A stretch of 64,000 nt of DNA. Origin: an uncultured Gammaproteobacteria bacterium (lineage in GTDB: Bacteria; Patescibacteriota; Patescibacteriia; Magasanikbacterales; UBA922). How positions within the stretch are numbered: the stretch's first letter is position 1; each line of letters starts with the position of its first letter. Shown here piece after piece: positions 16,550 through 64,000 of this stretch. The position numbers were made by a program, and so were the translations under genes. The stretch covers positions 81,934 through 145,933 of the forward strand of contig CAZMHV010000002.1 in assembly GCA_964566225.1 (NCBI GenBank), read 5' to 3'. The notes below the pieces were generated by a model. That model did not search any database, was not told the origin of the DNA, and saw nothing but the letters and a program-made list of their open reading frames with translations.

Positions 16550-16558
16550 AAAAAATTG

Positions 16559-35359: not shown

Positions 35360-35363
35360 CGAA

Positions 35364-36415: not shown

Positions 36416-36483
36416 CCTGTTCACGACCTCTCCGAGGTCACCAGTGAGCCGCGCCTCAATAAGAGAGGTCGCACGCACGCTCA

Positions 36484-36547: not shown

Positions 36548-36552
36548 TGAAA

Positions 36553-36589
36553 ACAGGGAATGATACTTGTGTCATTCCCTGTTTTTTTA
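36553..36589 (+). terminator. rho-independent terminator
   Basis: acagggaatga-tacttgtg-tcattccctgt-ttttttt. Confidence 0.8.
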
Positions 36590-36675
36590 TCTTGACAAAG
36601 CAAAATTTTTATGATATACACACAACGCATCCAAATTCTGGATGAGTCTTTTTACCACTGGTCATATCAAAGGCG

Positions 36676-38207: not shown

Positions 38208-38240
38208 CAAAAACAGTCCAGAGTATGGACTGTTTTTGTT
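38208..38240. terminator. bidirectional hairpin terminator
   Basis: acagtcc-agagtat-ggactgt flanked by an A-run on one side and a T-run on the other; serves the island gene (+) and rnpB (-). Confidence 0.7.
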
Positions 38241-40218: not shown

Positions 40219-40283
40219 AAAATAAAATACAAAAAAGTGAAAACACCTTGCAGAAAATATTTGAGTTGATGACCTAGTGAAGT

Positions 40284-41396: not shown

Positions 41397-41478
41397 TATT
41401 GGGAACATTTCTCAAACTCTAAAAAATTATTTATAAAGAAATTGAGCACGTTTAATTTTTTTGCTCAGTCACTTACTT

Positions 41479-42648
41479 ATGAATATTGGCATTGATATCA
41501 ATCCACTTCTCACTTCACCCCGGACGGGAGTTGGTGAATATACCTTTGAACTGCTCAATGCTTTGTTTACCCTTGATAAAAAAAATCAATATTTTCTTTT
41601 TTCCAACTCATTTTCCAAAAAACACGACGACCAAATTTGGAGTCAAAAAAATGTTCACTGTATTCATACTCGTGTCCCAAATAAAATTTTTCATCTGGTG
41701 ATGCAACTTACCAAACGACCCTACATCGATGAGCTTTTGGTAAAACAATATGAAAAAAAGAATAAAATAAAAATTGGTCACCTGGATGTGTTTTTTTCTC
41801 CTAATATTGGTTTTTCTTCACTTTCCAAAAAATGTAAAAAAATTCTTACGGTGCATGATGTTTCATTTGAATTATTTCCTAAGTGTTTTTCTTTCAAAAT
41901 GCGTCTGTGGCATAAAATTTTAGATCCCAAAAAACAGTGTGAACAAGCACAGAATATCTTTGTCCCATCAGAGAATACCAAACAAGATCTCATGCTCTTG
42001 TATAATATTTCTCCAGAAAAAATTTCTGTGAGTCCGCTTGGTCTCAGTTCGTGTTTTGCCTCGGTTGATGTTTTTGATCCTGAACACTTACGTCTGGTGA
42101 AAGACAAATACCATCTCCCGAGCAAGTATATTTTCTTTTTAGGCACGGTAGAACCACGTAAAAATATTTTATTTTTACTCCAGGCTTTTGCTTTATTTCA
42201 AAAACAATTTCCGGTACAAGCAAGTGAATATACCTTGGTTATCGCAGGTAACAATGGTTGGAAATACAAACCAATACAAAAGAGTATTGCAGCGACTCCA
42301 CAGGTTCAATATATTGGATATGTAGAAGAACGTGATAAACCTCTTTTGTATCACGGTGCCAGCATGTTTGTGTATCCAAGTTTGTACGAAGGATTTGGAC
42401 TCCCAGTACTCGAAGCTATGGCCAGTGGTGTACCCGTTATTACGAGCAATCGTTCCTCGCTTCCTGAAATAACAAGTGGGGCTGCGTATTTGATTGATCC
42501 ACGCAATATTCAAACTCTCGTAACCGCTTTTGTACGGCTCAGCGATTCTGAGTCGCTAAGGCATGCGCATGTATCCAAAGGACTCAACGAAGCACAAAAA
42601 TTTTCGTGGCAAAAATCAGCAGAACAGTTTTTGAAAAATATTTATTAA
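41479..42648 (+). CDS. glycosyltransferase family 4
   Basis: EGFGLPVLEAMASGVPVITS. Confidence 0.8.
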   Translation: MNIGIDINPLLTSPRTGVGEYTFELLNALFTLDKKNQYFLFSNSFSKKHDDQIWSQKNVHCIHTRVPNKIFHLVMQLTKRPYIDELLVKQYEKKNKIKIGHLDVFFSPNIGFSSLSKKCKKILTVHDVSFELFPKCFSFKMRLWHKILDPKKQCEQAQNIFVPSENTKQDLMLLYNISPEKISVSPLGLSSCFASVDVFDPEHLRLVKDKYHLPSKYIFFLGTVEPRKNILFLLQAFALFQKQFPVQASEYTLVIAGNNGWKYKPIQKSIAATPQVQYIGYVEERDKPLLYHGASMFVYPSLYEGFGLPVLEAMASGVPVITSNRSSLPEITSGAAYLIDPRNIQTLVTAFVRLSDSESLRHAHVSKGLNEAQKFSWQKSAEQFLKNIY

Positions 42649-42654
42649 AATACT

Positions 42655-43779
42655 ATGCGTATTGGTATTGACGCACGCATGATGGGTAAAGGATTTGGAC
42701 TGGCTCGGTACACCGAGCAACTTATTGTGCATTCTTTACAAGTTGATACGGTCAACGAATTTGTTTTGTTTTTACGCAAAGAAAATTGGGATCAGATTCC
42801 AGATACCACACCTCGAGTCAAAAAAGTACTTGCAGATATTCCCTGGTATAGCCTACAAGAACAGTTGCAACTGATTGGCATTATCAAAAAAGAAAAGGTC
42901 GATCTCATGCATTTTCCACATTGGAATATTCCATATTTTTATCGCCAGCCGTATGTGGTCACCATTCATGATCTTATCATGTTTCACTTTCCACGGGCAC
43001 AGGCTACCACACTTGGGCCTGTGAAATTTTGGGTCAAAGATATGGCGCATCGGCTGCTTTTGCGTACAATATCCAAAAGTGCCAAACATATTTTTGCTAC
43101 GAGTGAATTTACCAAGAGTGATATCCACGCAACATTACATGTGCCTTTAGAAAAAATGACGGTCACGTATCAGGCACCGTTTGAGGTCATTCAAAACATG
43201 GACGACATAAACCATGAATCCCTTCTCGCCAAATATAATATTACCAAGCCATATATACTCTATGTTGGTGCAGCCTATCCACACAAAAATCTCAGAGGTC
43301 TGATTGATGCATGGAAATTGTATGAACAAAAATATGGTTCAACCCATCAGTTGGTGTTGGTTGGTAAAGAAAATTATTTTTATTCGGAAATAAAAAAGTA
43401 TCAGCAAGCAGTGGCACCAGAGAGTCATGTTTTGTTTACAGGTTTTGTTCCTGACGAAGAACTTTCGGTACTGTATGAACATGCTTCTTTGTACGTATTT
43501 CCGAGTCTCTACGAAGGTTTTGGTCTTCCTCCCCTGGAAGCCATGGTACATGGCGTACCAGTTGTCTCATCAAATCAGAGTTGTCTTCCTGAAGTCCTGG
43601 GCAATGCAGCACTGTATTTTGATCCCCAAAACAGAGATGAGATGGTTGAAAAAATTCACTCTGGTCTCACCGATATATTACTTCAAGAAAATTTGAAAAT
43701 ACATTCAAAAAAAATTCTGCAAAAATACTCCTGGGAAACACTTGCCAGACAGACGATAAATGTCTACCTCTGCCCTTGA
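42655..43779 (+). CDS. glycosyltransferase family 4
   Basis: EGFGLPPLEAMVHGVPVVSS. Confidence 0.8.
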   Translation: MRIGIDARMMGKGFGLARYTEQLIVHSLQVDTVNEFVLFLRKENWDQIPDTTPRVKKVLADIPWYSLQEQLQLIGIIKKEKVDLMHFPHWNIPYFYRQPYVVTIHDLIMFHFPRAQATTLGPVKFWVKDMAHRLLLRTISKSAKHIFATSEFTKSDIHATLHVPLEKMTVTYQAPFEVIQNMDDINHESLLAKYNITKPYILYVGAAYPHKNLRGLIDAWKLYEQKYGSTHQLVLVGKENYFYSEIKKYQQAVAPESHVLFTGFVPDEELSVLYEHASLYVFPSLYEGFGLPPLEAMVHGVPVVSSNQSCLPEVLGNAALYFDPQNRDEMVEKIHSGLTDILLQENLKIHSKKILQKYSWETLARQTINVYLCP

Positions 43780-43832
43780 TTTTTTCTGCGTTTAGTGATA
43801 CAATAGCCTCCACTTAACTTCTTTTATTCTCT

Positions 43833-44561
43833 ATGTCTGGAATTTTTCAAACCGTTCTCTATCAGCCAATTTTCAATGGTTTTGTAGCATTGTATAACCT
43901 TATACCAGATGTTGGTATTGTTATTTTGATTGTCACCATACTCTTAAAGGTGGTAACCTATCCTTTGACTGACAAATCTATCAAAGCACAAAGGTCACTC
44001 AGTGCTCTGCAACCCAAAATGGAAGATTTGAAAAAAAAGTACAAAGACGATCAGCAAACTTTGGCGCAAGAAACCATGAAGTTGTACAAGGAACATAAAG
44101 TAAATCCACTTGGCTCGTGTCTGCCTTTGCTCATTCAGCTTCCTATTTTTATTGCACTGTACCAAGTTTTACAAAATGGACTTACGGCTAATGACTTTCA
44201 ATTGCTCTATTCATTTGTGCCGAGCCCAGGAAGTATCAATACCATAACACTTGGATTTTTTGACCTAGTAAAACCAAACGTTGTCTTGGCAGTACTTGCT
44301 GGTGCGTCTCAGTTTATGCAAGCCAAAACTATGATGCGCAAACACCCACCAAAAGCCGCAGGCGAAGGTGGTAAAGACGAAGATATGGCAGCTATGATGA
44401 ATAAACAAATGCTCTATGTCATGCCGGTGCTTACGGTGATTATTGGTCTCAAGCTTCCTGGTGGTTTGTCACTCTACTGGTTTTTGTCGACTATTTTAAC
44501 GGCAGCGCAACAATATTGGGTTGCCAAAAAAGAAAAACAGACTGATGTTGTAGTGTTATAA
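43833..44561 (+). CDS. yidC: membrane protein insertase YidC (short form)
   Basis: …VTYPLTDKSIKAQRSLSALQPKMEDLKKKYKDDQQ…HKVNPLGSCLPLLIQLPIFIALY. Confidence 0.85.
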   Translation: MSGIFQTVLYQPIFNGFVALYNLIPDVGIVILIVTILLKVVTYPLTDKSIKAQRSLSALQPKMEDLKKKYKDDQQTLAQETMKLYKEHKVNPLGSCLPLLIQLPIFIALYQVLQNGLTANDFQLLYSFVPSPGSINTITLGFFDLVKPNVVLAVLAGASQFMQAKTMMRKHPPKAAGEGGKDEDMAAMMNKQMLYVMPVLTVIIGLKLPGGLSLYWFLSTILTAAQQYWVAKKEKQTDVVVL

Positions 44562-44566
44562 TCAAT

Positions 44567-44866
44567 ATGCGTATTGCTTTCAAACAGCTCAAAAAAATGA
44601 AAGTGGAAACGCTTTCTGGTACCAACCTTGGCAAAGTGCATGATATTATTTTCGATACAGAAGGTCAAAATATTATTCAGTATATAGTAAAACTCGGGAC
44701 TCTTGCTACCGAAGAAAATTTAATCAGTCGTGATCAGATTGTTCGATTTGAAGACAAAAAAGTGATTGTTTATGATACGGCTGTAAAGAAAAAAGACCGT
44801 GATATGGAAAAAATCATTCCTTTAGTTCCACAGGTTGACTCCAACCTTGCCATGCGACAAGAGTAA
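44567..44866 (+). CDS. PRC-barrel domain protein (YlmC/YmxH-like)
   Basis: LSGTNLGKVHDIIFDTEGQNIIQYIV… PRC-barrel pattern. Confidence 0.5.
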   Translation: MRIAFKQLKKMKVETLSGTNLGKVHDIIFDTEGQNIIQYIVKLGTLATEENLISRDQIVRFEDKKVIVYDTAVKKKDRDMEKIIPLVPQVDSNLAMRQE

Positions 44867-44871
44867 AAACA

Positions 44872-44906
44872 AAAAAGAAGATCCTTCATGGACCTTCTTT
44901 TATTTT
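44872..44906 (+). terminator. rho-independent terminator
   Basis: agaagatcc-ttcatg-gaccttctt-ttatttt. Confidence 0.6.
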
Positions 44907-44935
44907 ACGTCAAAATACGTTACACTTGAACCTAT

Positions 44936-45871
44936 ATGGACATGTTTCACATTTCTCTCAAAAAAACCTTGGCCTACTTTGATTTATTTTCTTGCCCCAT
45001 TACCAAGGAAGAGTTATATACATATCTTTTCTCTCCACAAGAAGAAATTTCTTTTGATACGTTTGTGCGTCGTCTTCATACCCTTGAGGCTTCCAAAGAA
45101 AAGTGTTTTGAAACCTCGTGTGGGTATTATTTTTTACCAGCGAAACAAGAAACTGTGACCATGCGTGAACGTCGTGTTTGGTATATTGAAAAAAAATTAA
45201 AAATTGCCAAACGAGCGGCTCGGCTTTTACGTTATATTCCATTTGTCAAAGCCTTTTTTGTATGCAATCAAATACAAATTGGTGTGACTCAAAAAAGTGA
45301 TATTGATGTGCTTATTGTGGTAAAGCAGGGGAGAATGTTTTTTACTCGATTGTGCATTACATTTTTGCTTGGTCTTTTTCGCCTTCGTCGTGGAAAGAAA
45401 AAAGTAACCGATCGGATCTGTTTGAGTTTTTATGTCACAGACAATGCGTTAGATTTTTCTTCTCTCCAAATAGGGGAGCCTGATATTTATTTTACCTATT
45501 GGCTCGCAACACTCATTCCAGTCTATGATCCAGAGGACTCCTTGCAAAAAATATTTTCAAACAACATTTGGGCAACAAAAAATTTACCACATGCCTTTGA
45601 GAGCGTACCCCTTGGCAGTGATTGGAAAGTAACAAATAATATGTTTAGTCTTTTTATAAAACAGTGGCTTGAAAAAATACTGCAGGGCAAGTGGGGGGAC
45701 AAGCTTGAAGCTGCCACCAAAAAATTTCAGCTCAAACATATGCAGGGCAATAAGTCGAGTGTCCAAAATCAAGACTCTCGCGTTGTTATCTCAGACACTT
45801 TATTAAAATTTCACGAAAACGACCGCCGAGACCTGTTTCGACAAGAGTGGGAAAAGCGGTGGAAGATATAA
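44936..45871 (+). CDS. hypothetical protein (possible nucleotidyltransferase fold)
   Basis: …QKSDIDVLIVV… resembles the Pol-beta-type NTase hG[GS]/DxD region; otherwise unrecognised. Confidence 0.35.
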   Translation: MDMFHISLKKTLAYFDLFSCPITKEELYTYLFSPQEEISFDTFVRRLHTLEASKEKCFETSCGYYFLPAKQETVTMRERRVWYIEKKLKIAKRAARLLRYIPFVKAFFVCNQIQIGVTQKSDIDVLIVVKQGRMFFTRLCITFLLGLFRLRRGKKKVTDRICLSFYVTDNALDFSSLQIGEPDIYFTYWLATLIPVYDPEDSLQKIFSNNIWATKNLPHAFESVPLGSDWKVTNNMFSLFIKQWLEKILQGKWGDKLEAATKKFQLKHMQGNKSSVQNQDSRVVISDTLLKFHENDRRDLFRQEWEKRWKI

Positions 45872-45880
45872 AAAATATTC

Positions 45881-47185
45881 ATGAACAGTATCTTTGATAA
45901 AAAAAAATTACCTCAAAAGTTACATTTTTTTCTCAGTGCACTTTTGTTTCTCCTCCCATGGCAAACCATTCTCATCCTTCAAAAATGGGAACTCGGCACC
46001 ATTGGTATTTTTGGATTTGAAATTTTATTTTGGATTGTTGCCGCAGTATTTTTTGTCTGGTATTTTCAAAGTAAAAAACAACCGACAAAAATGAGTTGGC
46101 TCTTCGTAACTTCTTTTGTTTTTTTGGGCTTTTGTTTTCTCTCTATTCTTTGGTCACCTGAGCCAATGGTTGCTTTTTTTCAAAGCCTTCGAATCACTGA
46201 GGGTTTTTTACTTTTATATATATTCACGGTTGTTCCGTTTGATACATACAAGGCCGCAGGTTGGTTTATTGCAGGATCAACGGTGCAAGCACTCCTTGGA
46301 ATCTATCAATTTCTCACTCAGTCCACAGTGAGTTTCAAATGGCTTGGACTTGTTTCCCATCCAGTGCTGGAGACAGGGACGTCGGTTATTCAAAGTCTTG
46401 AAGTAGGCAGGTGGCTCCGCGCATATGGTGCATTTCCACACCCCAATGTACTTGGTGGATACCTCGTTGTTGGAATTATGTGTACAACACTTTTTCTTTT
46501 CTCAAAAAATATTCAAAATAAAAAAATAATTTTTTTGAGTCTGTTCATTCAAACTGCAGCACTTTTTTTCACCTTTAGTCGTTCGGCGTGGATTGCTACG
46601 GTACTTTGGTTTGGTGGACTCGTTGCATACTCTGTGGTGAAAAAATACAAAAAACAAAACTCTCTCTTAATCAAAAATATTCCTCACATTGTCTTTTCTT
46701 TTTTTCTATTCATCAGTATTGTATCCCTGTTCTATTTTCCTCTTGTCAAAACTCGTATTAGAGGCGAATCCTATCATGAAGTTCGTTCCATTGAAGAACG
46801 CATTGGTGGCCCTAAGTTTGCTTTGAATCTTTGGAAAACCTCGCCCCTCATAGGAGTAGGAGTAGGCAACTATGTTCCAGCCATGTCTGAAGTTTCTCCA
46901 AATCAAGAACGGTGGGTATACGAACCAGTCCATGTTGTCCCGCTTTTAATGCTCACGGAGCTTGGAATTTTCGGCTTCAGTGTATTTCTCCTTGTTGGTT
47001 TTTTCTTTGCAAAGAATATTCCTTTGGGTGGTATTTTTATGCTGGTAGGCTTTTCTGTGCTTCCATTGTTTATGCTCGATCACTATTTATATTCACTCCC
47101 AGGAGGGCTATTTCTCTCGGGGGTTATTCTTGGGCTTTTTCCAAAATTTTTCCACACTTTGTCCCCACCTCAGGAACAAAACTAG
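45881..47185 (+). CDS. O-antigen ligase/polymerase family membrane protein (Wzy_C-like)
   Basis: About 10 TM helices; conserved …FSRSAWIA… loop region. Confidence 0.65.
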   Translation: MNSIFDKKKLPQKLHFFLSALLFLLPWQTILILQKWELGTIGIFGFEILFWIVAAVFFVWYFQSKKQPTKMSWLFVTSFVFLGFCFLSILWSPEPMVAFFQSLRITEGFLLLYIFTVVPFDTYKAAGWFIAGSTVQALLGIYQFLTQSTVSFKWLGLVSHPVLETGTSVIQSLEVGRWLRAYGAFPHPNVLGGYLVVGIMCTTLFLFSKNIQNKKIIFLSLFIQTAALFFTFSRSAWIATVLWFGGLVAYSVVKKYKKQNSLLIKNIPHIVFSFFLFISIVSLFYFPLVKTRIRGESYHEVRSIEERIGGPKFALNLWKTSPLIGVGVGNYVPAMSEVSPNQERWVYEPVHVVPLLMLTELGIFGFSVFLLVGFFFAKNIPLGGIFMLVGFSVLPLFMLDHYLYSLPGGLFLSGVILGLFPKFFHTLSPPQEQN

Positions 47186-49691: not shown

Positions 49692-52025
49692 TTGTGTATG
49701 AAAAATTTTTCTTATGCAAAACAGTCACTTGCTGTACTTTTAGGTATTGTCCTTTTTGTTGTCTATTTTAGTTTTGGGTCTGTTGCCAAAGCTACGGTAC
49801 TCACGGGTGCAGACAGTGATGTAGGTATATTTTGGTATGTTTTTGGTGGACCAGCCAATGATACCACAGACGCAAATGATAGCGATAGTATGGGAGATGT
49901 TTCTTGGCCAGCGGGCAATCAAGATTCCAGAAATATTTATATTGGTCACCTTACATCCAAATTTACTAAAGTAGTAGTAGATGTTTCTTCGGCAACAACT
50001 GATACTGGCCAAGATCTGGATATGCAATATTGGAATGGTTCTGCGTGGACAGCTCTCACCCTCACTGCACAAACACATCCGTTTGATACGGTCGGAGTAA
50101 ATAGTTTTTCTTTTTCTGCTCCTTCTGATTGGGTAACCACCAGTGTTGGAGGAACGAGTGCTTATTATATACGTACTCCGATAGCGGTTGGGACTCTTAA
50201 TGAAAAAGGTTATGTAAATGCACAAGTGAGTCAGATCTCTTTGCAACTTGTTGCACCTCCGGGGATTACTCTAACAGAATCTGGTATTGGTGGTACTTCT
50301 CTCACCGAATCTGGAGCAACAGATGGTTATACTATTGTACTCAATGCTCAGCCAACTTCAAACGTGACTATCGCGGTTACTCCGGATAGTAATTCCAGTG
50401 TATCTACCAGTAGTATTGTTTTTACTACAAGTAATTGGGATACTCCAGTCAATGTCACCGTCACTGCGGTAGATGACTCTATCGCAGAAGGATCGCATTC
50501 TTCTACCCTTACGCATAGTGCTACATCAGATGACTCAAATTATAATGGTATCAGTATTAATTCTATTATAGCAAGTGTTGGAGACAATGACACCGCTGCA
50601 ATTACTCTTAGCGATTCAAGTGCCCAAACTGCGGTAACAGAAGGAGGCGCAACAGGTTACCTCACAGCTGTTTTGACGAGTCGTCCTACCAGTACAGTTA
50701 CACTTACCTTGACACCTTCGAGTCAGATTACGCTTTCTACCACTACTATTGAATTTTCTTCCGTCAACTGGAATATTCCTGTAACTTCAACTATTACCGC
50801 TGTAAATGATTCTGCTGTGGAGGGAACCCACACAGGGACTATTACATACTCGGTTGCAAGTTCTAACTGGAACTATTCAGGCTTGGTATTGACGAATACC
50901 TCTGTTTCTATTACCGATAATGATACTGAATCTACCCCTACAGTCACTTCCAACAGCAATGCTCCTTCAGCTACTCCTCCTACTCCTCCAGCATTGCCAA
51001 CTTCACAAAATGATGAAAATACTGCTATTTTTGTGCCTGTTCCTCAAGAAGTTGTATTAGAGAAAGATGTGTCAATTCCTCTCATCCTCGGCGGAGAAAA
51101 CCACAGCCTTACTCAAGTAGGAACCGCTACTGAGAGTCAAATTACCGTTATTTTGCGGTCAGAACCTATTATCGTAACCTTAACAAAAAGTGAAATTCAA
51201 GAAATTGATTTCAATAAAGATGGCAAACAAGATATTCGTCTGCAATATAAAGGGTTTAAAAATAGTAAACCTCAACTCGAAATCACCCCACTTATAGAAG
51301 TAGGTGAAGGCAGTAAAGCTCTTTCTATCAACCTTGGCGCAACATCAACTCTTTCACGAAGTGTGACATTGACACTGCGTGCGTACAATGCGAGTTGGAT
51401 GGCCATTTCTGAGGATCCAAAATTTCAAAATGTCTCATTTGTAGCGTATCAAAAAAGTTATCCCTTTACTCTTTCAGAGGGAACCGGTGAAAAAACAGTA
51501 TATGTTCGTTTTCGTGGTGACAACGGTGGAACGGTCGACTCAAGTGATCGTATTCTTTTAGAAAAAATAACTACCTGTCCACTCACCCCAGGGAAGCCTT
51601 ATAAATCTCCACAAAATCCTGCTGTATATTTGGTACTTGATGCCCAAAGTCAAGAAGTAGCCGCTACCGATGCTCCTTGTGTAAAACGCCTCTTCAAAGA
51701 TCCCTCTACATACTTTACTTATTTCTCATCCTATAAAAGTATTATCGGTACGACTGAACAGATACTTTCATCGATACCCGACGACCCTATATCTTTTATT
51801 CCACTTGGACCCAACGCAAAACTTGATGAAAAAGGTCTTGTCAAACAGGTTTTAACTCCCAATGTGTATATTGTTCTCTCCAATAAGTTACACTGGGTAA
51901 AAACAGAACAAGTTTTCAAAAAAATGGGGTTGGTATGGAACTCTATTCAAGATATTTCACATGTTCTTTTTCGTAACTTCAGTGAGGGGGCACCGATTGA
52001 AACAGAATCAGATATACAAAAATAA
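49692..52025 (+). CDS. secreted surface protein with tandem ~110-aa Calx-beta-like repeats
   Basis: Signal peptide; repeats …TESGATDGYTIVLNAQPTSNVTIAVTP…VNVTVTAVDDSIAEGSHS… and …TEGGATGYLTAVLTSRPTSTVTLTLTP…TITAVNDSAVEGTHTG…; Pro/Thr linker PTPPALPTS. Confidence 0.6.
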   Translation: MCMKNFSYAKQSLAVLLGIVLFVVYFSFGSVAKATVLTGADSDVGIFWYVFGGPANDTTDANDSDSMGDVSWPAGNQDSRNIYIGHLTSKFTKVVVDVSSATTDTGQDLDMQYWNGSAWTALTLTAQTHPFDTVGVNSFSFSAPSDWVTTSVGGTSAYYIRTPIAVGTLNEKGYVNAQVSQISLQLVAPPGITLTESGIGGTSLTESGATDGYTIVLNAQPTSNVTIAVTPDSNSSVSTSSIVFTTSNWDTPVNVTVTAVDDSIAEGSHSSTLTHSATSDDSNYNGISINSIIASVGDNDTAAITLSDSSAQTAVTEGGATGYLTAVLTSRPTSTVTLTLTPSSQITLSTTTIEFSSVNWNIPVTSTITAVNDSAVEGTHTGTITYSVASSNWNYSGLVLTNTSVSITDNDTESTPTVTSNSNAPSATPPTPPALPTSQNDENTAIFVPVPQEVVLEKDVSIPLILGGENHSLTQVGTATESQITVILRSEPIIVTLTKSEIQEIDFNKDGKQDIRLQYKGFKNSKPQLEITPLIEVGEGSKALSINLGATSTLSRSVTLTLRAYNASWMAISEDPKFQNVSFVAYQKSYPFTLSEGTGEKTVYVRFRGDNGGTVDSSDRILLEKITTCPLTPGKPYKSPQNPAVYLVLDAQSQEVAATDAPCVKRLFKDPSTYFTYFSSYKSIIGTTEQILSSIPDDPISFIPLGPNAKLDEKGLVKQVLTPNVYIVLSNKLHWVKTEQVFKKMGLVWNSIQDISHVLFRNFSEGAPIETESDIQK
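50260..50940 (+). repeat. two tandem protein-coding repeats (~340 bp each) inside the surface-protein gene
   Basis: The two repeat units are parallel at protein level (see the CDS entry for 49692..52025). Confidence 0.55.
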
Positions 52026-52084
52026 TAGAGATTTGACTGAAAAAAGCTGTACACAGATACCTGTGTACGCTTTTCTTTATACGT

Positions 52085-53023
52085 ATGCATATACTTCCTC
52101 TCCTCAAAAAAATATTTTCAGAAAAAAAATATTGGCAGGTCAAAAGTCTTGTACTTCGATTTTTTTCGTTTTTGTGTATTTTTTTTCTTGTTGATTTTAC
52201 CCATGAAACCTATACTCAAAAATATTTTGGGTATGCGGTACGCACCAGTGACGGATTTATCAATTATTTGCCATATCTTTTTTTGGGTGCATTTTTTGTA
52301 CTGAGGCTTCCATCATTTTTTACTGGCCCCCAAAATAATCATACCAAAATTTTATCATCTGTATATACATATCTCGCTCTGTTCTTTTTTTTGATGCCGG
52401 TTCCAAGGAGTATTTTTGAGTCAAATCTCTCACTTATTTTTGTTCAGTCAATTTTCATGCTTTTGGGCTATATAAGTTTATTTGTAGCCATACTCGGAAA
52501 GAATTTTATAAAAAAATTTTCTGTAGACCTTTCCGTTATTATACTTCTTATTATTCCGTCACATTTGGCTCCACTCCTCATCGATCACTTTTGGCAGTAT
52601 TCATCACGGGTTACGTTAGCAGGTCTTTCACTTTTATTTTCACTTTTGCATATTGATGGAGTTATTATACCAAGTGAATTTGCTGTTCGTATGAAAGACT
52701 TTTCTGTGATTGTCGGTCCTTCGTGTGCAGGTATTCATTCCCTCACAGCTTTTACCGTATTGTACGGTGCCATACTACTTCTTGCCTCCAAAGATGTCGC
52801 TTTCAAGGGATATTATGCTGCTTTGTTTTATGCCATTGGTCTTTTTGCTGTATTTTTGCTCAATAGTATTCGTGTTTTCTTGATTATTTTGGTGGGAGTT
52901 TATTATTCCAAAGATTTTGCTATCCACTTGTTCCATGAGACTATTGGTTCAGTGCTCCTTCTCAGTTTTTTCATTTTGTATACTTCTTTTATTCTTCCCA
53001 AAATTCTGAGAAGAGCATCTTGA
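52085..53023 (+). CDS. exosortase/archaeosortase-family transmembrane protein (EpsH-like)
   Basis: Polytopic; VIVGPSCAGIHSL matches the exosortase catalytic Cys region (C-x-G…); a conserved Arg region follows. Confidence 0.5.
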   Translation: MHILPLLKKIFSEKKYWQVKSLVLRFFSFLCIFFLVDFTHETYTQKYFGYAVRTSDGFINYLPYLFLGAFFVLRLPSFFTGPQNNHTKILSSVYTYLALFFFLMPVPRSIFESNLSLIFVQSIFMLLGYISLFVAILGKNFIKKFSVDLSVIILLIIPSHLAPLLIDHFWQYSSRVTLAGLSLLFSLLHIDGVIIPSEFAVRMKDFSVIVGPSCAGIHSLTAFTVLYGAILLLASKDVAFKGYYAALFYAIGLFAVFLLNSIRVFLIILVGVYYSKDFAIHLFHETIGSVLLLSFFILYTSFILPKILRRAS

Positions 53024-54823: not shown

Positions 54824-54894
54824 ATTGTGAACTCAACAAAATTTTGTTATAATAGACTGGATAAAAAACTTTTTCACATCCAGTCTTTTTTTGT

Positions 54895-55622: not shown

Positions 55623-58600
55623 ATGCTAGAGTTTTTTTCACCCAAAAGGAAATTTGTCAAAGTCACTCTGTTTGTCGTTGGCATGCTTCAAGTTTTTAGT
55701 TTTCTTTTGGTCGCTCCGGTTTTTGCACAAGCGGGTCAGCCTGTATCTGACTATACGACAGAGTTAAATACCTATGTTACAGCCAATGTTTTGCTTGCTG
55801 ATAAGGCCAAAAAAGAAGTTGACCAAGGACTTTTGGCTACTGGAGTTGCCTCTATCATCCATGCTTTTTCCTATTTCATGGACAAAATCGCCTATGACAC
55901 TGCTCAGTACGTAGCCAATGGTGGCAAAGGCCAAAGTGCTTTGGTATTTAGAAAGGGTTTCAAGAGCTATATTGAAGACACGGCTCTTGATGCTGCCGGA
56001 GATTTTATTGAAAATTTTAGTACCAATGCACTCGGTATTAACCTCTGTCAAATTCCAGATCCACACCTGGCTATATTTTTGACACTTGGTTTCAAGAGTA
56101 TTTATGGCAAAGGTGGTCCTCAATCAAGTTGTTCTTGGCAACAATTTCGTAATAACTGGAGTCGAGAAGCGTTTGAACAACGCTATGGCCCAGGTGGAAG
56201 TCGTTTTTTGGCAGAAACTTTTAGTGCAAATTTAAAAGTAAGTAATACTGACTTCGGTGTAGGGTTATCTGCTATTGCCAAGCTTGACAAAGTTACGGCT
56301 CAAGCCAAAACCGCTGCTGCTGATGACCGCAAAGAAGGACAGGGGTACAAAGCGGTAACGGCTATGATTACGGGAAATATTTTGACTCCATCACAGGTTG
56401 TCCAAAAAGAAACTGATGTTGCTACCAATCATTACAAAGTTGAAGCCAATAACCAGCAGCTGGCGGGTATTTTGGCCAGTGGTGCCAATCAAGTTTTTTG
56501 GCATGCAGGTTCTGTATTTTTGAATACACTGACTTCAGAGATGATCAATAAATTGCTCACCCAAGGAATGTTTCCTGATATTGGAGACGATGGGAGTGCG
56601 GTAGAGGGTGGCTTTTATAACAGTCCACAAAATCGTTTGAATGGTGCAGCAAATCCCTATGCTCAGTTGCTTACGGCTCGACCTTCTACTCAAGTCAATA
56701 ATTATAATATCATTTCAGAGTTTGCTACCTGTCCAGACGCTCCAGGTATGAACAATTGTGTCATCGATACCGACTTCCAAAGAGCGCTCGACATTGGTAA
56801 CAGTGATAAACCACTTACTATCCAAGAGGCACTTGATAAAGGTTTGCTCCACGGCAATTGGCCTCTTATTTCTCCTAAACGTGAAGCTGACAATGCCAGT
56901 CCAAATCATGATTGTTACCAGGGAAAATATTGCTATTCCAATATCCAAAAACTTCGTAAAGTAAATATCTTGCCACTTGGTTTTGAAATTGCCGCTCTTC
57001 GTTCTGATCCAGATCAACCTTGGACACTTGAAACGGTCGTGAGAAACTTTGAAACCTGTTATCGTGTCAATGGACAAGGAAATCCTGATCCAAATGGTAC
57101 TATTATTCGAGAAAATGCTGCGTTTCCATTTTGTCATCTTATTAATCCAAACTGGATTATTCGTGTACCAGCGCTCCAATGTATGGGCAAGGTGATTACC
57201 GATTCACTGCTTAGTCCCGATTCTGCGCAGCGTCGTGAAGAATGTCTTGATGTCAAAACATGTATTAACGAAGGTGAAAATGGAAGTTGTGGTGGTACTT
57301 ACGCGTACTGTACTCAAGAAAAAAATATTTGGAGAATTCCAGGACAATCTTGTCCTGCTGAGTATAATACCTGTACCACGTACATGAACAATTCTACCCG
57401 CCAGGCAGCTTCATATTTGGCGCGTACGGTTGACTACGGTGAATGTAGTATTGATACAGTAGGGTGTCGTGCGTATGCTATCCAAAAATACGGTGCGGGT
57501 AACTGGCTTGGTTCCGGTGATGTTGATGATAGTGACAACCACAAAACATTTCGTGCTCTTCATGACACCACAGATATTATATACTTTGACAATGCTATAA
57601 AAGCACAAAGTACGGTTTGTCGTCCTGGCAATAATGGATGTACATTATTTTATGGTGCAGTCCAAGATACCACTACCGGTCAGTACCAAAAAACATCAAA
57701 CAACAAATTTATTGAAGACAAAAATGTTCAAATTCATCTCAAAAAAGCTCCCGATTATTTGAAATGTTATGATAGTAATCAGGCAAGTCCAGATATTGAT
57801 TGGCCAACTACTTTGGCTGACGTAGAAACCAATGTTTCTCAAAGCGAACAGTGTAATGCTTTTGCTTCAGTATGTTTAGAAAGTGAAATTGGTTGTGAGG
57901 CTTATACTCCGCTTGATGCCAAACAAGTGGCTCTTGCGGGTGTACCTCAAATTCCAGGTATGATTGGGGCACAAAATGTATGTAGTAGTGATTGTGTGGG
58001 ATATGCTACTTTCAAACAAGAAGCTGATAAATTTTCCAATGAAAAATTTCCATTGTATTTTATTCCTCAAAATGGCAAGAGTTGTGATGCCAAGTACACT
58101 GGCTGTTCAGAATTTACCAATATTGATACACGTGCTCAAGGTGGAGAAAAGAAAGAGTATTATACAGATCTCAAATACTGTGAAAAACCTTTGGCAGACC
58201 AAAGTAATATAAAAACATTCTATACTTGGGAAGGCAGTATCAACCAAGGTCTTTCTCTCAAAACTGTCAAAATATTACCAGTGAGTGCTGAAGAAAATAC
58301 ATATTTAAATGCAGTTCTTGCAGACGAAGATGCCAAATACATTGATCAATTTCCTGTTGGTTCACCTGCGTATGGAGATGATAGTAAAATTGCACTTATG
58401 GGTGCGGTTACCCAATGTAACAAAGAAAACTATTTGATTCGTCAAAACAATCCATACGATGTTGATGCTGCGGTACCAGATTGTAAAGCATACTATGACG
58501 ACGCTGGAAATATTTTTTACAGAGTCTCAGGAGATGACTCCAAATCTCTCAATAAATTAGTAACTATTTCACCGGCATGTCATCCTTTGCGCAAAACCAA

Positions 58601-61600
58601 TCCTGAATTTTTTGCAGACATTGCACTCCAGGGCAATAGTGATGCATGTTTACGCAAGGGAGGTAACTATGACCCTGCCCAAGGAACCTGTCAGCGTTGT
58701 ATGAATGGTGGACGTTTTGAAAACAACAGCTGTGTCTATCAAACTATTTCTGCTCCAGGACAATCAACTTCTTGTCCAGCTGTGGCCAATGGATGCCGTT
58801 CATATACTGGAAGTACTGCCAACAACGTAAATGAAATATTCAATGACGACTTTGAGGGAGCTACTGACGAAGAAGTAGCGCAAATGGTTGCTCCATGGAA
58901 ACCTGCTCGAAATGTTCGTATCTCTGTTGAGGCTGCACAGGCTGGTGCGCACTCACTTGAAGTGAGCGGTCCTGCCAATCAAGTAGTGAATCGTCAAATA
59001 GAACCAGGATCATTCAAGAGTGATTCTTGGTATGAGGTAACATTCTGGGCCAAAGGTTCTGGCCGAAATGTTTCAGTAGCACTTTCTCAAACCGAAAACA
59101 ATGCTCGCGTGGTGAAAGCAGATTTTTCTCTTGACCCACTCACTGGTGAGCATGTGGCTGCCTCTATTGATCAAGATTGGCATGCATATCACCTTGGACC
59201 AGTTCAATTTATTGGCGCCACCAGTACTCCGCTCATGCTTGATTTTGTACTCGAGGGGAACAACAATCTGCCTGTGTATATTGACCATGTTCGTTTTACC
59301 CAGGTTCGTGACCATATTCCTCTTATCAAAGATTCATGGAAAACTTCTGAGGGGTATGATGCTCCACTTTCTTGTGATTCAGATCCTCTCGATGCACTCC
59401 CTGGTGAAAGACTTGGTTGTTCTGCCTACAAAGATAGTAATAACAAAATTCGTTTTGCCACAGGTTTTGAAAAACTCTGTCGTGAAAAAGCGGTGGGTTG
59501 TCAACCACTCTGGGATACCTTCAATACTGTCGAAGGTGATGATGCTGATAAAAAATTGGTTTACAACGTTTTGTGTCAGGTAAATCCTCAGGCGGCAAAC
59601 ATGGCCAAAGTTGAAAATGGTAAATGTACCCTGTATCGTGCTGGAAATCTCAACAAACCAGCAGGGGAGTGTGCTATCAAAAATCAGTTTGAACCATACT
59701 GTTACGTTTCCAAAGTTGTCTTGGAAGCAGATGAAAATTTTAGTATCAGTTTTGGTAATAACGCACTCACCCGATCAACCGTCATTGTTCCTGCAGACAC
59801 GGCCAGTAGTACTCCAATATTTTTGGCCAACCGCAAAGATTTTCGTTGTAGTGAAACAGAACGTGGTTGTATGGCTGTAGGACTTGAAAATCAGCTTATT
59901 TCAACTGCAACCGTTTCTACTTCTTATAAATATACTGACATGATGGTCAAAAATGACCCTGCCTTGTACGATAAAACGTTGTGTCGAAGTGATTTGGTTG
60001 GTTGTGACGAATTTAAAAACAATAACAATGTAACCTACTTCAAAGATCCAAAAATTATTGGTAACAAAACCTGTGTGTACAAAGAAAAAGGCAACACAGA
60101 TACATTTGGTTGGTTTCAGGACGGTGTTGGTCGTTGTACGGCCAACTCAGACCGTTTGTGTCGTACCAATGATGACTGTGACCGAGGAGATACTTGTAAC
60201 TCTGCAACTTTGAATACGGTTGCCTGCTATGAAGATTACCAACGCGAAGGTGGCATGTATGATTTGTGGAGTAATAATACCCAGCAGTACGATGGTTTTG
60301 TAGGTTCTTGTCCAAATAACTATAACCTGTGTACAGAACTTATTGATCCAGCCGATACTTCATCGGTGCATCCTGCTGGTCAAGCATACTATGTTATTTT
60401 CAATAATCAGGTGACTTCACAGGTTTCAAAATGTGATGGCAAAGTAAGTTTGAGTGAAGGTTGTGTTCTCTTCAACAAAACCGATCAACCAAATAAATTG
60501 TACGATAGTGTCGCTACCTATACCAATTCAGAAAATGCAAATCCCAAATATTCGCCAGTAGCACCTGTTTCAACTGGTCGAAGTCTCAATACCAACTTAA
60601 TCTTGAAAGTGAACCGTGACCGTATGTGTAGTCGATGGCTTGATTGTGCTACCAGTATTCGTCAAACCGATGCTTCGGGCAAGCCAGTTGACCTCTGTTA
60701 TGCATTTCGTGAATGTGAACAACAAGAAGGTGGCGTCTGTACCAAGTGGGTAGACAACTTTGCCAATAATAGTACGGTACAACAAGCTGCTACTCGTATT
60801 ACCTATGGCAACTATATCAAGCGTGGTACTTCATGGTATGACAATGAATTTACGGGGTATTCACTGTACAACAAATTCCGTATTGACAACATGATCTATG
60901 TTTCATTTGATAACGACGTTTTGAAATCAACCTATAAACTCTTAGAAGGGGATGTAGAAAAAATGGTGGACAGACAGTATCTTGCCTATGAAATGGATGG
61001 TCAATTTTTTACTGGTGAAAGTCGTGGCAAAGGGTGTTTCCCAGATCCTGCAAATCCAAATGTCAGTACAGACATGAAAATTTGTGGATATGACAATGGT
61101 GGTCGTTGTTACAAAAATAAATGTATATATCCTATCACTGGTGTGTTTCCAGCAGGTATTGACCCTGTCAGTGCTGTAGACGCAACTCGTCGCAGTAGTA
61201 TGATCACACTGTTGAATGCACTTACCTCCAACAGTTGTAAAGGTCACCCAGAAATTACCGGACCATTTGAAATTCAGACCGTGCTTGATAAAGACGCAAA
61301 TCCTGTTAAAAAATACCTGTTCGATGGGGATGGTTTCAATGCAGGCTTATTCCGTTTAGAAGTACGAAACCCTCGCAGTGGATTTTCCAATGCCAATTAC
61401 TGTCAAGACGAAGAGTGTTCCTGTGGTTACAAAAAAATATATTACAATGGAAATTCTCTTCCAGACTATGTTGACTTACAAAAACCTGTAAATAGTCGTG
61501 GTGTTTGTATTAGTGGAGATATTCCTGTTCGAAATGATGATGGAACTGTGAATAATCAAAGAACGCAAAGTGCTGTTGGTTCATACTGTCAAAATGACAA

Positions 61601-64000
61601 TGATTGTAATATGCCAGGTCTTCCACCCGAACAACGAACTGGCAAATGTAGTTTGGTATCCAAAATTGAAAACCACATTGGTTTCAAAGGTTTCTGTTTG
61701 GAGCCTGATTATAGTCGCCCAACATTTCTCAAAAATCAGCCATACGAATGTTTGACTTGGCTGCCAATTCAAGTTTCTGCTTCCAATGTGGACGTATATA
61801 ACGCACATACCAGTGCTGGATATGATTTGTCGAGAGATGCAGGGAGTGGCAATGCTGGTCAGGTGTATTGTAGTGTTGCAACGGATGTAGGACACTATCT
61901 TGGCGATGCTCGATATGATGTTTCGTTCAATGGTTTACCTCCTGAATATCAAGATGACTTTAATGGGATTTATAAAAATAATGGTTCTTTGAACCTTGTA
62001 GAGGGAGACGATTATGATCGTGATACTGATATACATCATAACTCAGAGTGGAATGATTATGCTAGAAATATAGTAAGTCAAGAGTTAAAACGTATATATA
62101 CGGTTGTAAATTCTCACTGGAGAAATATAAATGGTAAAAGAAATGACAACCAGCACGTCTTACGTATTGAATACAACTCATCATGTCGTGATTGTGGAAA
62201 TATCGAAAACAACGAAGGTTGGGAAGATTTTGGATCATTTTGGCTCGACCCAAATGACCATGGTGAAAGTGTTCTTCGTGCAGGTTCCACTGGTGCTGTA
62301 TATGCATTTGTCCCTCGTCAGACATTTGACCACGTAGGTTTGTATGAGTTTGGCACCATCATGCATCCTCCCCGTATTTGGGACAATGACCAGTTTGAAA
62401 ACTTACTCACAAATGATCCCCGATCTTTTTCTGTCGCACCTCAAGATGTAATGAATCCACATATTCCTGCGTTTCAATCTCGACTGGCAACCTTTTTTAT
62501 GAGTCCAGAAGCAAGTAATCATCACTTAACCAATGCAGCAGAACGTCCAAATGGTCGGTCAAGTATTTGGAACATGATTGACGATAGAGTCTATATTTCA
62601 CCATTAGAAAAGCATTTGAGAGAAGCTGATATAGAGAGTATTAATCTTGTTCCATTAGCATTTCCTAAGAATCCATCAAATAATGACGAAGTCCCTGCTC
62701 TTATGAGTTCAGAATTGGTTATTGACTTCAATGCACTTCGTAGACTTCCCGAAGGTGGTCAAGCTCAGGTAAAAGTTGTACTCGAAGCACAGGCAGATAA
62801 CAATAATGGAAACTTCTTACCAGCCAAAGCTGAACCAGACTCTGTACTGTGGACATATCGTCTTAACAATGTTTCTGGATCCACATTTAATTTCAAAAAT
62901 TATAATCATTTCACCGAAATGGATGACGCGATAAAAAATAATCCACGAAATCAAATTGCAACGAGATATGTCATGGTATACACTGATTCTTTGCAAGATA
63001 CCAATAGACTCCCTTCTTTTATCCAGTCACATGTTGCTTCAAACGGTCAAATAAATGCCAACAATATTGCGAGTCCTCCAAGTAATTCTGACTCAGATCC
63101 TTTTTCTGTTCCTTGTACCGAAGATACTGATGGGTTCAACAAAGATTGGATCGCGGTAGGACTTGATTTCAATGCAGATGGTGAATTTTTAGGATACATT
63201 TCTCGGTACTGCAATAGGTTCAATGCTGCGGTAGAAATGGCAGTGGTGGCCAAAATAAATGACTCATGTAGTGAGTTTATGCAGGTGTATAATGATCAAG
63301 AAAACATTGTGAGTGGTCAAACCAACAAAGCCTGGACCCAAAAGGTATGGACTGGTGCAAAGATGTGGGTTCAAAATCAGCTTGTGGAAAGTAAAATTAA
63401 ATCATCTATCACTCGGAGTCTTTCATATGGACCTTTTGGTTCATTGTACTTGGCTGGGTCAGATGTAGCCACGGTCGCTGGTCTGGTCAATGGTGAAAAT
63501 GCTTTTGTGTATAACAATCAACGAGTTGAAGAGAACCAAAAAATTGCTATCAACAAGTTAAGAAATTATACATTTAGTGGAAGACCAGTAGAGAGTCTTC
63601 CGGCCAATCAGTATTCAGGGGTACCATACTCATGTACTTCTCGATGGTTTGGTATTGATCGTGATGCAGATATAAATCAAGCTATTGCACCAGACTTTGC
63701 ATTTTTGAAGTTTCGGTCAAATGTTGGTGACCATGATTGTTTTGGGGTAAATCCTTATATTGAAAATGGTTCCGAAGATATTGTTCAAAATTTACGGAGT
63801 CATATGAATGATACCGATCCAAATACAGAGATTTTAGGTCTGTTTGCAAAATCCTTTGCTACCCTTGAGTTCAATGTGTTAAATAATCAGAGTAGAACGC
63901 TTCAACTGAGAAAGGTAGTCGATCAATCATTCTTGGATAAATCATATCGCAGCAATGAATATACTGAAAATGGTGTGAACATTAAGTTGCTTCCACCACA
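55623..64000 (+). CDS. giant Cys-rich secreted/surface protein, 3' partial (>2,790 aa within the window)
   Basis: In-frame ATG at 55623 with a signal/TM segment (VTLFVVGMLQVFSFLLVAPVFAQA). My reading in this frame found no stop to the window end. Only short ORFs appear on other frames and strands here. Many spaced Cys pairs. Confidence 0.6.
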   Translation, partial: MLEFFSPKRKFVKVTLFVVGMLQVFSFLLVAPVFAQAGQPVSDYTTELNTYVTANVLLADKAKKEVDQGLLATGVASIIHAFSYFMDKIAYDTAQYVANGGKGQSALVFRKGFKSYIEDTALDAAGDFIENFSTNALGINLCQIPDPHLAIFLTLGFKSIYGKGGPQSSCSWQQFRNNWSREAFEQRYGPGGSRFLAETFSANLKVSNTDFGVGLSAIAKLDKVTAQAKTAAADDRKEGQGYKAVTAMITGNILTPSQVVQKETDVATNHYKVEANNQQLAGILASGANQVFWHAGSVFLNTLTSEMINKLLTQGMFPDIGDDGSAVEGGFYNSPQNRLNGAANPYAQLLTARPSTQVNNYNIISEFATCPDAPGMNNCVIDTDFQRALDIGNSDKPLTIQEALDKGLLHGNWPLISPKREADNASPNHDCYQGKYCYSNIQKLRKVNILPLGFEIAALRSDPDQPWTLETVVRNFETCYRVNGQGNPDPNGTIIRENAAFPFCHLINPNWIIRVPALQCMGKVITDSLLSPDSAQRREECLDVKTCINEGENGSCGGTYAYCTQEKNIWRIPGQSCPAEYNTCTTYMNNSTRQAASYLARTVDYGECSIDTVGCRAYAIQKYGAGNWLGSGDVDDSDNHKTFRALHDTTDIIYFDNAIKAQSTVCRPGNNGCTLFYGAVQDTTTGQYQKTSNNKFIEDKNVQIHLKKAPDYLKCYDSNQASPDIDWPTTLADVETNVSQSEQCNAFASVCLESEIGCEAYTPLDAKQVALAGVPQIPGMIGAQNVCSSDCVGYATFKQEADKFSNEKFPLYFIPQNGKSCDAKYTGCSEFTNIDTRAQGGEKKEYYTDLKYCEKPLADQSNIKTFYTWEGSINQGLSLKTVKILPVSAEENTYLNAVLADEDAKYIDQFPVGSPAYGDDSKIALMGAVTQCNKENYLIRQNNPYDVDAAVPDCKAYYDDAGNIFYRVSGDDSKSLNKLVTISPACHPLRKTNPEFFADIALQGNSDACLRKGGNYDPAQGTCQRCMNGGRFENNSCVYQTISAPGQSTSCPAVANGCRSYTGSTANNVNEIFNDDFEGATDEEVAQMVAPWKPARNVRISVEAAQAGAHSLEVSGPANQVVNRQIEPGSFKSDSWYEVTFWAKGSGRNVSVALSQTENNARVVKADFSLDPLTGEHVAASIDQDWHAYHLGPVQFIGATSTPLMLDFVLEGNNNLPVYIDHVRFTQVRDHIPLIKDSWKTSEGYDAPLSCDSDPLDALPGERLGCSAYKDSNNKIRFATGFEKLCREKAVGCQPLWDTFNTVEGDDADKKLVYNVLCQVNPQAANMAKVENGKCTLYRAGNLNKPAGECAIKNQFEPYCYVSKVVLEADENFSISFGNNALTRSTVIVPADTASSTPIFLANRKDFRCSETERGCMAVGLENQLISTATVSTSYKYTDMMVKNDPALYDKTLCRSDLVGCDEFKNNNNVTYFKDPKIIGNKTCVYKEKGNTDTFGWFQDGVGRCTANSDRLCRTNDDCDRGDTCNSATLNTVACYEDYQREGGMYDLWSNNTQQYDGFVGSCPNNYNLCTELIDPADTSSVHPAGQAYYVIFNNQVTSQVSKCDGKVSLSEGCVLFNKTDQPNKLYDSVATYTNSENANPKYSPVAPVSTGRSLNTNLILKVNRDRMCSRWLDCATSIRQTDASGKPVDLCYAFRECEQQEGGVCTKWVDNFANNSTVQQAATRITYGNYIKRGTSWYDNEFTGYSLYNKFRIDNMIYVSFDNDVLKSTYKLLEGDVEKMVDRQYLAYEMDGQFFTGESRGKGCFPDPANPNVSTDMKICGYDNGGRCYKNKCIYPITGVFPAGIDPVSAVDATRRSSMITLLNALTSNSCKGHPEITGPFEIQTVLDKDANPVKKYLFDGDGFNAGLFRLEVRNPRSGFSNANYCQDEECSCGYKKIYYNGNSLPDYVDLQKPVNSRGVCISGDIPVRNDDGTVNNQRTQSAVGSYCQNDNDCNMPGLPPEQRTGKCSLVSKIENHIGFKGFCLEPDYSRPTFLKNQPYECLTWLPIQVSASNVDVYNAHTSAGYDLSRDAGSGNAGQVYCSVATDVGHYLGDARYDVSFNGLPPEYQDDFNGIYKNNGSLNLVEGDDYDRDTDIHHNSEWNDYARNIVSQELKRIYTVVNSHWRNINGKRNDNQHVLRIEYNSSCRDCGNIENNEGWEDFGSFWLDPNDHGESVLRAGSTGAVYAFVPRQTFDHVGLYEFGTIMHPPRIWDNDQFENLLTNDPRSFSVAPQDVMNPHIPAFQSRLATFFMSPEASNHHLTNAAERPNGRSSIWNMIDDRVYISPLEKHLREADIESINLVPLAFPKNPSNNDEVPALMSSELVIDFNALRRLPEGGQAQVKVVLEAQADNNNGNFLPAKAEPDSVLWTYRLNNVSGSTFNFKNYNHFTEMDDAIKNNPRNQIATRYVMVYTDSLQDTNRLPSFIQSHVASNGQINANNIASPPSNSDSDPFSVPCTEDTDGFNKDWIAVGLDFNADGEFLGYISRYCNRFNAAVEMAVVAKINDSCSEFMQVYNDQENIVSGQTNKAWTQKVWTGAKMWVQNQLVESKIKSSITRSLSYGPFGSLYLAGSDVATVAGLVNGENAFVYNNQRVEENQKIAINKLRNYTFSGRPVESLPANQYSGVPYSCTSRWFGIDRDADINQAIAPDFAFLKFRSNVGDHDCFGVNPYIENGSEDIVQNLRSHMNDTDPNTEILGLFAKSFATLEFNVLNNQSRTLQLRKVVDQSFLDKSYRSNEYTENGVNIKLLPP

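Follow-up and report, generated by a model that had tools for sequence, protein, structure and literature searches.

The DNA analysed here (the window) is a stretch of 64,000 nucleotides from an uncultured bacterium placed by GTDB in the Magasanikbacterales (Patescibacteriota; GenBank assembly GCA_964566225.1, contig CAZMHV010000002.1, positions 81,934 to 145,933 of the forward strand), and it ends inside a giant gene whose product is a cysteine-rich secreted protein. A first, sequence-only reading of the window had described this gene as one frame open to the window end, with only short frames elsewhere in the region, and had named an overlooked stop or frameshift as the finding that would turn it into smaller genes or a pseudogene. 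Translation of 55623-64000 (+) in frame +1 gave 2,792 codons with no stop up to the window end, the last in-frame stop before it ending at 55601, and all remaining open reading frames (ORFs) overlapping 55.6-64 kb were 154 aa or shorter. Given the base composition, the chance of such a stop-free run is about 1e-81. The true 3' end lies 342 codons past the window end, where the stop was seen on an independent Logan contig (L001), and the full-length protein on record (P0001; 3,134 aa) is 100 % identical to the window part. A pseudogene, a read-through stack of smaller genes or an assembly chimera could point to a single homolog (L021) that is split into 2,260 + 783 aa. By contrast, the uninterrupted frame, the identical 3,134-aa product on the independent contig, the intact giant ORF in all 71 orthologous loci inspected and an end-to-end conservation with invariant cysteines exclude such an artefact, whose residual probability we regard as negligible. 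The giant gene is thus one intact gene, neither stacked genes nor a pseudogene.

The only hydrophobic segment of the protein spans residues ~10-35 and ends in a predicted signal-peptide cleavage site, with a Kyte-Doolittle maximum of 1.2 elsewhere, in keeping with the N-terminal signal segment seen by the sequence-only reading. The predicted richness in Asn, Asp and Gly was also recovered, with Asn being the most frequent residue (8.7 %), followed by Asp (7.2 %) and Gly (7.0 %). Cysteine is abundant (86 residues or 3.1 % in the window part, 104 in the full-length protein, with 13 C-x6-C motifs), but the regular spacing attributed to the cysteines did not hold in the sense of repeats, because self-BLAST found no internal repeat in the giant protein.

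Immediately upstream lies a gene for the small, Asp-rich membrane protein that had been called Ca-binding-like, here named the partner. It is predicted to be a single-pass (N-in) membrane protein with one transmembrane (TM) helix at residues 16-36, followed by a juxtamembrane motif LQxRNTxxxPF, two thrombospondin-type-3 (TSP3) Ca-binding repeats (DTDxDGL..., DTDSDG...), a CxxxxxC pair and a variable Ser/Thr-rich tail. Its match to Pfam TSP3_bac (PF18884) reaches 27.6 bits against a cut-off of 25 (E 2.5e-6), and the two DTDxDG repeats are conserved in 72 partner homologs, so that Ca binding is predicted. A partner of 220-240 aa sits directly 5' of the giant gene in 67 of the 71 loci (median distance 9 nt), and the partner family is confined to Magasanikbacteria/Patescibacteria. 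Further upstream, Sua5, RF1 and GroES/EL recur across loci. The gene rsmA (RrnaAD) stands between Sua5 and the partner in 65 related loci and is missing in this window, where a promoter-like site comes directly after Sua5. As far as gene order tells, the neighbourhood of the giant gene is a vertically inherited core region. The hairpin between the promoter-like site and the partner gene (Table 1) stops, with its T7 run, 2 nt before the partner ATG and could be a leader, an attenuator or a Sua5 terminator.

Table 1. Features of the giant gene, its product and the region upstream (window positions; residues of the giant protein)
Feature	Position	Strand	Remarks
Promoter-like site, TTGTGA-17-TATAAT	54825..54853	+	10/12, TG-extended; from a consensus scan only; 5' of partner gene
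Hairpin, 8 bp, 15-nt loop, T7 run	54855-54892		Between promoter-like site and partner ATG; read from sequence
Partner gene, 239 aa	54895..55614	+	8-nt gap to giant gene; Pfam TSP3_bac
Signal peptide, residues 1-35	55623..55727	+	Sec-type: KRK, hydrophobic core, VFA/QA
Conserved Cys-poor N-terminal region, residues 36-365	55728..56717	+	Long helices predicted
Cys-rich block I, residues 366-1065	56718..58817	+	~35 Cys, nearly all invariant
Cys-free beta-jelly-roll, residues 1066-1250	58818..59372	+	CBM4/CBM16/CBM22 (CBM_4_9)-like
Cys-rich block II, residues 1251-2095	59373..61907	+	~42 Cys, nearly all invariant; beta-rich; without known structural analogue
Hypervariable region 1, residues 2096-2480	61908..63062	+	Start of strain-exchangeable cassette
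Semi-conserved island within cassette, residues 2481-2600	63063..63422	+	DPFxxxC...GMDFNxDGEFLGYxSRxC...NKAWTxxVW
Hypervariable region 2, residues 2601-2792 in window	63423..63998	+	Reaches window end
Conserved Cys-containing C-terminal domain, residues 2791-3104	past window	+	FFAFADDNRMPxRxVxVDWxDG ... DNWGWCNG ... IIVxP
30-aa tail, residues 3105-3134	past window	+	Only in P0001

Architecture and relatives of the giant protein

The Ala of the AxA cleavage site (A35) is nearly invariant across the giant family. The region that follows it (residues 36-365) has a mean pairwise identity of 0.37 and carries the motifs AYDTAxYxAxGGKGQ, DFGIALGA and SVFLNTLTSxLL; it is all-helical in AlphaFold2 (AF2) model 1 at low confidence (predicted local distance difference test, pLDDT, 30-60) and had no PDB profile match. 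Several [ST]C-x5-GC-xx-[YF] hairpin-like motifs occur in block I, and pLDDT values of 80-93 were obtained for residues ~360-560 and ~800-1065, with no credible PDB fold match for this block. The only fold match of the giant protein is the jelly roll between the two Cys-rich blocks, which is superimposable on solved carbohydrate-binding modules (CBMs) and was confirmed by two fold searches. PF02018 (CBM_4_9) itself stays below the gathering score in the window protein and is on record for 3 homologs only, and the PDB profile match to xylanase CBM4-2 is marginal (E 0.07). The giant protein thus contains one CBM-type fold, for which carbohydrate binding is putative and which, unlike known CBM4/16/22 modules, comes without a glycoside hydrolase. 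Among the modules that the sequence-only reading had suggested searching for, EGF-like, DUF11, Calx-beta and CARDB were absent, and this lectin-like jelly roll alone was found. At least 850 residues of the protein are modelled with fair confidence as folds that have no PDB analogue.

Across the family, variable region 1 ranges from 46 to 597 aa with a mean pairwise identity of 0.21, and variable region 2 (residues 2601-2790) from 4 to 204 aa. Down to 30 % identity, about 95 of the 104 cysteines do not vary, and nearly all other invariant positions hold G, P, W or Y. Such a pattern is expected of a structural or binding protein stapled by disulfides, not of an enzyme.

A word-indexed search retrieved 143 relatives of the giant protein. 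The 120 of them that were listed are nearly all 2,500-3,350 aa in length, with a few partial records; every name given by their sources is 'hypothetical protein', and the named organisms are Cand. Magasanikbacteria or Patescibacteria. We ascribe the 'Gammaproteobacteria' in the titles of many 'binchicken' metagenome-assembled genomes among the relatives to a default at submission. When one genome per GTDB species was scanned, 373 species had a relative, almost all Cand. Magasanikbacteria/Patescibacteria, and the reduced-genome organism assumed by the sequence-only reading is indeed a Patescibacterium, its relatives being Cand. Magasanikbacteria. When a profile of residues 51-1060 was compared with 1.84 billion cluster representatives, 1,563 matches were obtained at E<=1e-3 and 1,221 at E<=1e-30, with the top matches all beginning at target residue ~30-70. 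By these searches the giant family is a closed one, of fixed architecture and with almost no penumbra of remote relatives, and the gene is near-universal, apparently single-copy and vertically inherited in its housekeeping neighbourhood.

Most of the giant protein has no detectable sequence or fold relatives. The window protein had no Pfam match at E<=0.1, NCBIfam, PHROGs and PADLOC gave nothing for the giant protein, and a single-sequence search of the PDB gave no match either. Profile searches of the PDB (with residues 51-1060, with an alignment centred on 1251-2100 and with 2481-3104) returned only marginal CBM matches, and a Pfam scan of 17 C-terminal segments returned only stray single-member matches (Dickkopf_N, FG-GAP). 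A full-text literature search found no paper describing the giant family.

Replacement of the C-terminal third between strains

Comparison of close relatives showed where the family varies. In eight close pairs, residues 1-2,095 are 86-100 % identical, with only 38-72 % identity in variable regions 1 and 2 and the island. In one pair from different samples (L085 and L054), DNA identity is 99-100 % from rsmA, across the partner gene, to ~6 kb into the giant gene. It falls thereafter to 78-86 % and then to 41-69 %, or to unalignable sequence, over about 3-4.5 kb, and is back at 98-100 % across the final ~115 codons and the genes beyond. Similarly, L086 and L042 are 95.8 % identical to codon 2054, where a sharp break leads to 66-81 % identity or unalignable sequence. 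The replaced segment of 3-4.5 kb corresponds to residues ~2,100-2,990 and is referred to here as the cassette. Since flanks of such identity enclose a core that has diverged beyond uniform point mutation, the pattern is that of allelic replacement by recombination in the conserved flanks. The C-terminal third of the giant protein is therefore exchanged between strains by recombination.

Within the main clade, scaffold identity has little bearing on whether the cassette of a homolog can be aligned with that of P0001. For example, P0021 shares 42 % scaffold identity with P0001 and 0 % cassette coverage, and P0080 shares 34.5 % and 79 %, respectively. Orphan copies of the C-terminal part of the giant gene, 53-100 % identical to the resident gene, were found just downstream of it in 5 of 63 loci (L015, L016, L043, L057 and L070). 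Those of L057 and L016 are arranged as repeated units that include paralogous lipoprotein genes, and those of L015 and L070 adjoin HEPN/nucleotidyltransferase pairs. For this genome, no orphan cassette was found in the window or in the 10 kb downstream of it.

A small convergent gene follows the giant gene in at least 33 of 50 loci and also in this genome (L001 11148-11783, -). It begins ~100-350 nt past the giant stop, a conserved position, and encodes a fast-evolving product with a signal peptide, a lipobox-like motif and an acidic or Gly-rich linker. This lipoprotein gene may be a third component of the system. Treating the downstream lipoproteins as one family was rejected, as they are mostly singletons by phmmer and HMM clustering.

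Candidate functions at the cell surface

The sequence-only reading had proposed that the giant protein may mediate host attachment. We consider that a surface-displayed, conserved scaffold with an exchangeable recognition module, acting as an adhesin or host-range determinant of a Magasanikbacteria-type Patescibacterium, stands about an even chance of being the correct explanation. According to this model, the giant gene would be co-expressed with the partner across their 8-nt gap, and its product would follow the Sec route, directed by a cleavable signal peptide, and would be folded oxidatively into about 50 disulfides, which would need machinery of the MdbA/VKOR type. Such machinery is enriched in the Candidate Phyla Radiation (CPR) (PMC6744442). 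Because the giant protein has no anchor of its own, it would be held at the membrane by the extracellular Ca-binding TSP3 segment of the partner, as their strict synteny suggests. The N-terminal two-thirds, comprising the helical region, the two Cys-rich blocks and the CBM-type lectin module, would then present residues ~2,100-2,990 outward, where the observed cassette replacement would change binding or antigenic specificity. The likeliest ligand would be a glycan or protein in the envelope of a host or partner cell.

Genes downstream of the giant gene bear on this model. Among the 48 loci with enough downstream sequence, 24, drawn from both deep clades, have the giant gene followed on the same strand by a cluster resembling a type IV secretion system (T4SS). 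The cluster includes a ~1,000-aa membrane protein (TrbL_3, a weak match) and conserved neighbours, among them ~330-aa proteins; in L003 (20695-28850) it runs into PrgI (1.6e-7) and a VirB4-type ATPase (P-loop_TraG 2.5e-27), the latter being split into a TraC-like and a P-loop_TraG part. It corresponds to the monoderm-type T4SS-like cluster known from Patescibacteria. In 14 loci aspartyl-tRNA synthetase (AspRS) lies downstream instead. Downstream in this genome (L001) are the convergent lipoprotein gene, a gene for a 1,555-aa transglutaminase-core protein (5.2e-6) and one for a CBM_4_9 protein of >1,747 aa. These two further very large genes within 10 kb (L001 12308-21003) make up, together with the giant gene, a cluster of giant secreted proteins.

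Taken together, replacement of the C-terminal third and the frequent adjacency of T4SS-like genes lend indirect support to host attachment, a role that we infer. Several points weigh against it. The function assigned to the family as a whole is likewise deduced, and the episymbiotic lifestyle of this organism is an assumption. Library scans and the sequence itself revealed neither a known adhesin domain nor a wall anchor or a sorting signal in the giant protein, and it is gene order that speaks for retention at the surface through the partner. The partner is 100 % identical in the cassette-swapped strain pair and is thus uninformative on specificity, and the CBM sits in the conserved, not the variable, part of the protein. 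The AF2 models are of moderate quality, with a mean pLDDT of ~69 that drops to low values in the N-terminal 300 aa. The window and the 10 kb that follow it contained no T4SS homologs, so the T4SS linkage is absent in this genome. By analogy, strain-level cassette replacement is equally typical of surface-layer (S-layer) or coat proteins and of phage receptors, and the data used for host attachment also fit a role as an exposed coat or S-layer-like protein.

For the latter reason, namely that exposed coat proteins show the same cassette behaviour, we ranked second the possibility that the giant protein is the main coat or an envelope scaffold, a component of a lattice held by Ca2+ and the TSP3 partner, whose exposed part would vary under pressure from phages or grazers rather than for the binding of hosts. 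Cassette replacement is known at S-layer loci, as with the slpA cassette types of C. difficile and the sap genes of Campylobacter fetus. As in those loci (including the sapA homologs of the latter), a conserved anchoring or assembly part is joined to a recombining exposed part, partial silent copies lie nearby in some genomes, and an involvement of Ca2+ is plausible. A coat would also suit a gene that is near-universal, apparently single-copy and embedded among housekeeping genes, and whose product combines an extremely conserved, disulfide-rigid scaffold with a Ca-binding-type partner. By contrast, ~3,000 aa is far above the size of a typical S-layer protein, SLH, CWB2 and other S-layer anchoring domains were not found with Pfam or NCBIfam, and the variable part is internal, bounded by a conserved C-terminus of ~115 aa, so that a lattice remains putative and we judge a coat role unlikely.

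The T4SS-like genes raise the further possibility that the giant protein is an accessory of that apparatus, either as the contact or adhesion factor that it lacks, with a function analogous to that of PrgB, or as a part that spans the wall and brings the secretion channel to a target cell. A published survey of Patescibacteria T4SS loci states that 'no adhesins such as PrgB were detected' (PMC12102498), and the same-strand arrangement in half of the loci, across both deep clades, would fit a protein that fills this gap. Like PrgB/aggregation substance and the adhesins of Gram-positive (MPF_FATA) T4SSs, the giant protein is a large secreted surface protein that heads a monoderm-type T4SS cluster in half of the loci and could presumably provide cell-cell contact for a T4SS without a pilus. 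It differs from them in having no sequence or domain similarity to PrgB or antigen I/II (Pfam, NCBIfam and PDB) and no LPXTG, in being 2-3 times larger and disulfide-rich, and in having a dedicated TM partner. However, half of the loci, including that of this genome, have other genes downstream, and a median spacing of ~1.1 kb with unrelated small ORFs in between indicates that the giant gene and the cluster do not form one operon. The adjacency could be inherited synteny, and we hold an accessory role to be quite improbable.

A polymorphic toxin, secreted effector or lytic enzyme whose variable segment is an exchangeable toxic domain would account for a conserved N-terminal bulk with a variable C-terminal part, for orphan C-terminal fragments that in some loci lie by HEPN/nucleotidyltransferase pairs, and for the fast-evolving small gene directly downstream; but in contrast to toxins of the Rhs, CdiA or MafB type the variable part is internal rather than terminal, the downstream gene is 98-100 % identical in the cassette-swapped pair without the co-variation expected of an immunity gene, no Rhs/YD, FHA, toxin or hydrolase domain was found, no catalytic-type conserved residues stand out and export is by a Sec signal rather than by T5, T6 or T7 systems, which makes this explanation very improbable.

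The scaffold-and-cassette model was also compared with other large binding proteins. Phage receptor-binding proteins and tail fibres share its mosaic structure with a sharp break in identity, lectin-like jelly rolls and specificity by module exchange, but the giant gene is chromosomal and lies in a housekeeping context, and its product is Sec-secreted and cysteine-knotted. A phage origin was rejected, as IMG/VR and PHROGs hold no relative of the giant protein. Repetitive adhesins such as Bap, RTX, SiiE and LapA are built otherwise, since the giant protein has none of their tandem Ig-like, cadherin or BIg repeats by self-BLAST and Pfam, carries a Sec signal and ends in ...IIIPPP and a Cys tail with no LPXTG or TM segment.

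Giant extracellular proteins are already known from host-dependent ultra-small bacteria. The giant genes of Omnitrophota (bioRxiv 10.1101/2023.11.21.568195) and those of Vampirococcus/Absconditabacteria likewise encode very large, mostly unannotated extracellular proteins of host-dependent lineages, for which a role in interaction with host or prey has been proposed. They are built from modules that include numerous TM segments, repeats and enzyme domains, and they differ widely in length, whereas the family described here has a fixed, non-repetitive architecture of ~3,000 aa with one signal peptide and ~50 conserved disulfides. It is further set apart by a membrane partner of its own and by an exchangeable segment with sharp bounds.

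The surface proteins of ultra-small Patescibacteria beyond the cultivated Saccharibacteria are essentially unannotated. With 373 species representatives and about 1,200-1,500 cluster representatives, the giant family offers a lineage-wide candidate for the recognition and holding of partner cells. In its most far-reaching form, the adhesin model would have this family determine the host range of Magasanikbacteria. Its members would be giant receptor-binding proteins of a new, non-repetitive class with ~50 disulfides, anchored by a Ca-binding TM partner and with a recognition module exchanged between strains as a cassette, and would supply the missing cell contact of the T4SS-like apparatus; we regard this as possible though doubtful. 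If it were true, how CPR bacteria choose and hold their hosts would become testable from sequence by comparing cassette type with host. The exchangeable segment is in any case usable for population genomics, by relating cassette type to co-occurring hosts and phages, and for the expression of binding modules.

Other features of the window

A gene of the exosortase/archaeosortase family (52085-53023; TIGR04178 signature, 40 bits) lies 2.6 kb upstream of the giant gene. It is preceded by a gene for a 777-aa secreted protein with Calx-beta-like repeats and no obvious C-terminal sorting signal (the two together spanning 49692-53023), and the pair is not syntenic in three other loci compared. The giant protein was rejected as a substrate of such a sortase, as P0001 has no C-terminal hydrophobic segment, whereas such substrates end in a PEP/PGF-type motif, a TM helix and a basic tail.

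An unusual tRNA-Ile with anticodon UAU was identified at 16558-16631 (-) by ARAGORN and scored 65 bits with the Rfam tRNA model; AUA in bacteria is usually read by a lysidine-modified CAU tRNA. A GC-rich island at ~35700-38100 (55-62 % GC against a background of ~39 %) is flanked by tRNA-Leu(GAG) (35276-35360) and the RNase P RNA (38240-38659, -). Its ORFs at 35633-36484 (-) and 36676-38139 (+) have no Pfam match and the island has no Rfam match at E<=0.1; possible identities are an acquired element and a structured RNA not yet described. The window also encodes, at 7672-8862, a protein with ATP-grasp_2 and Citrate_bind domains that resembles the beta parts of succinyl-CoA synthetase and ATP-citrate lyase, and, at 38800-47185, a polysaccharide-synthesis cluster with a sugar transferase, three GT4 glycosyltransferases and a Wzy-type ligase.

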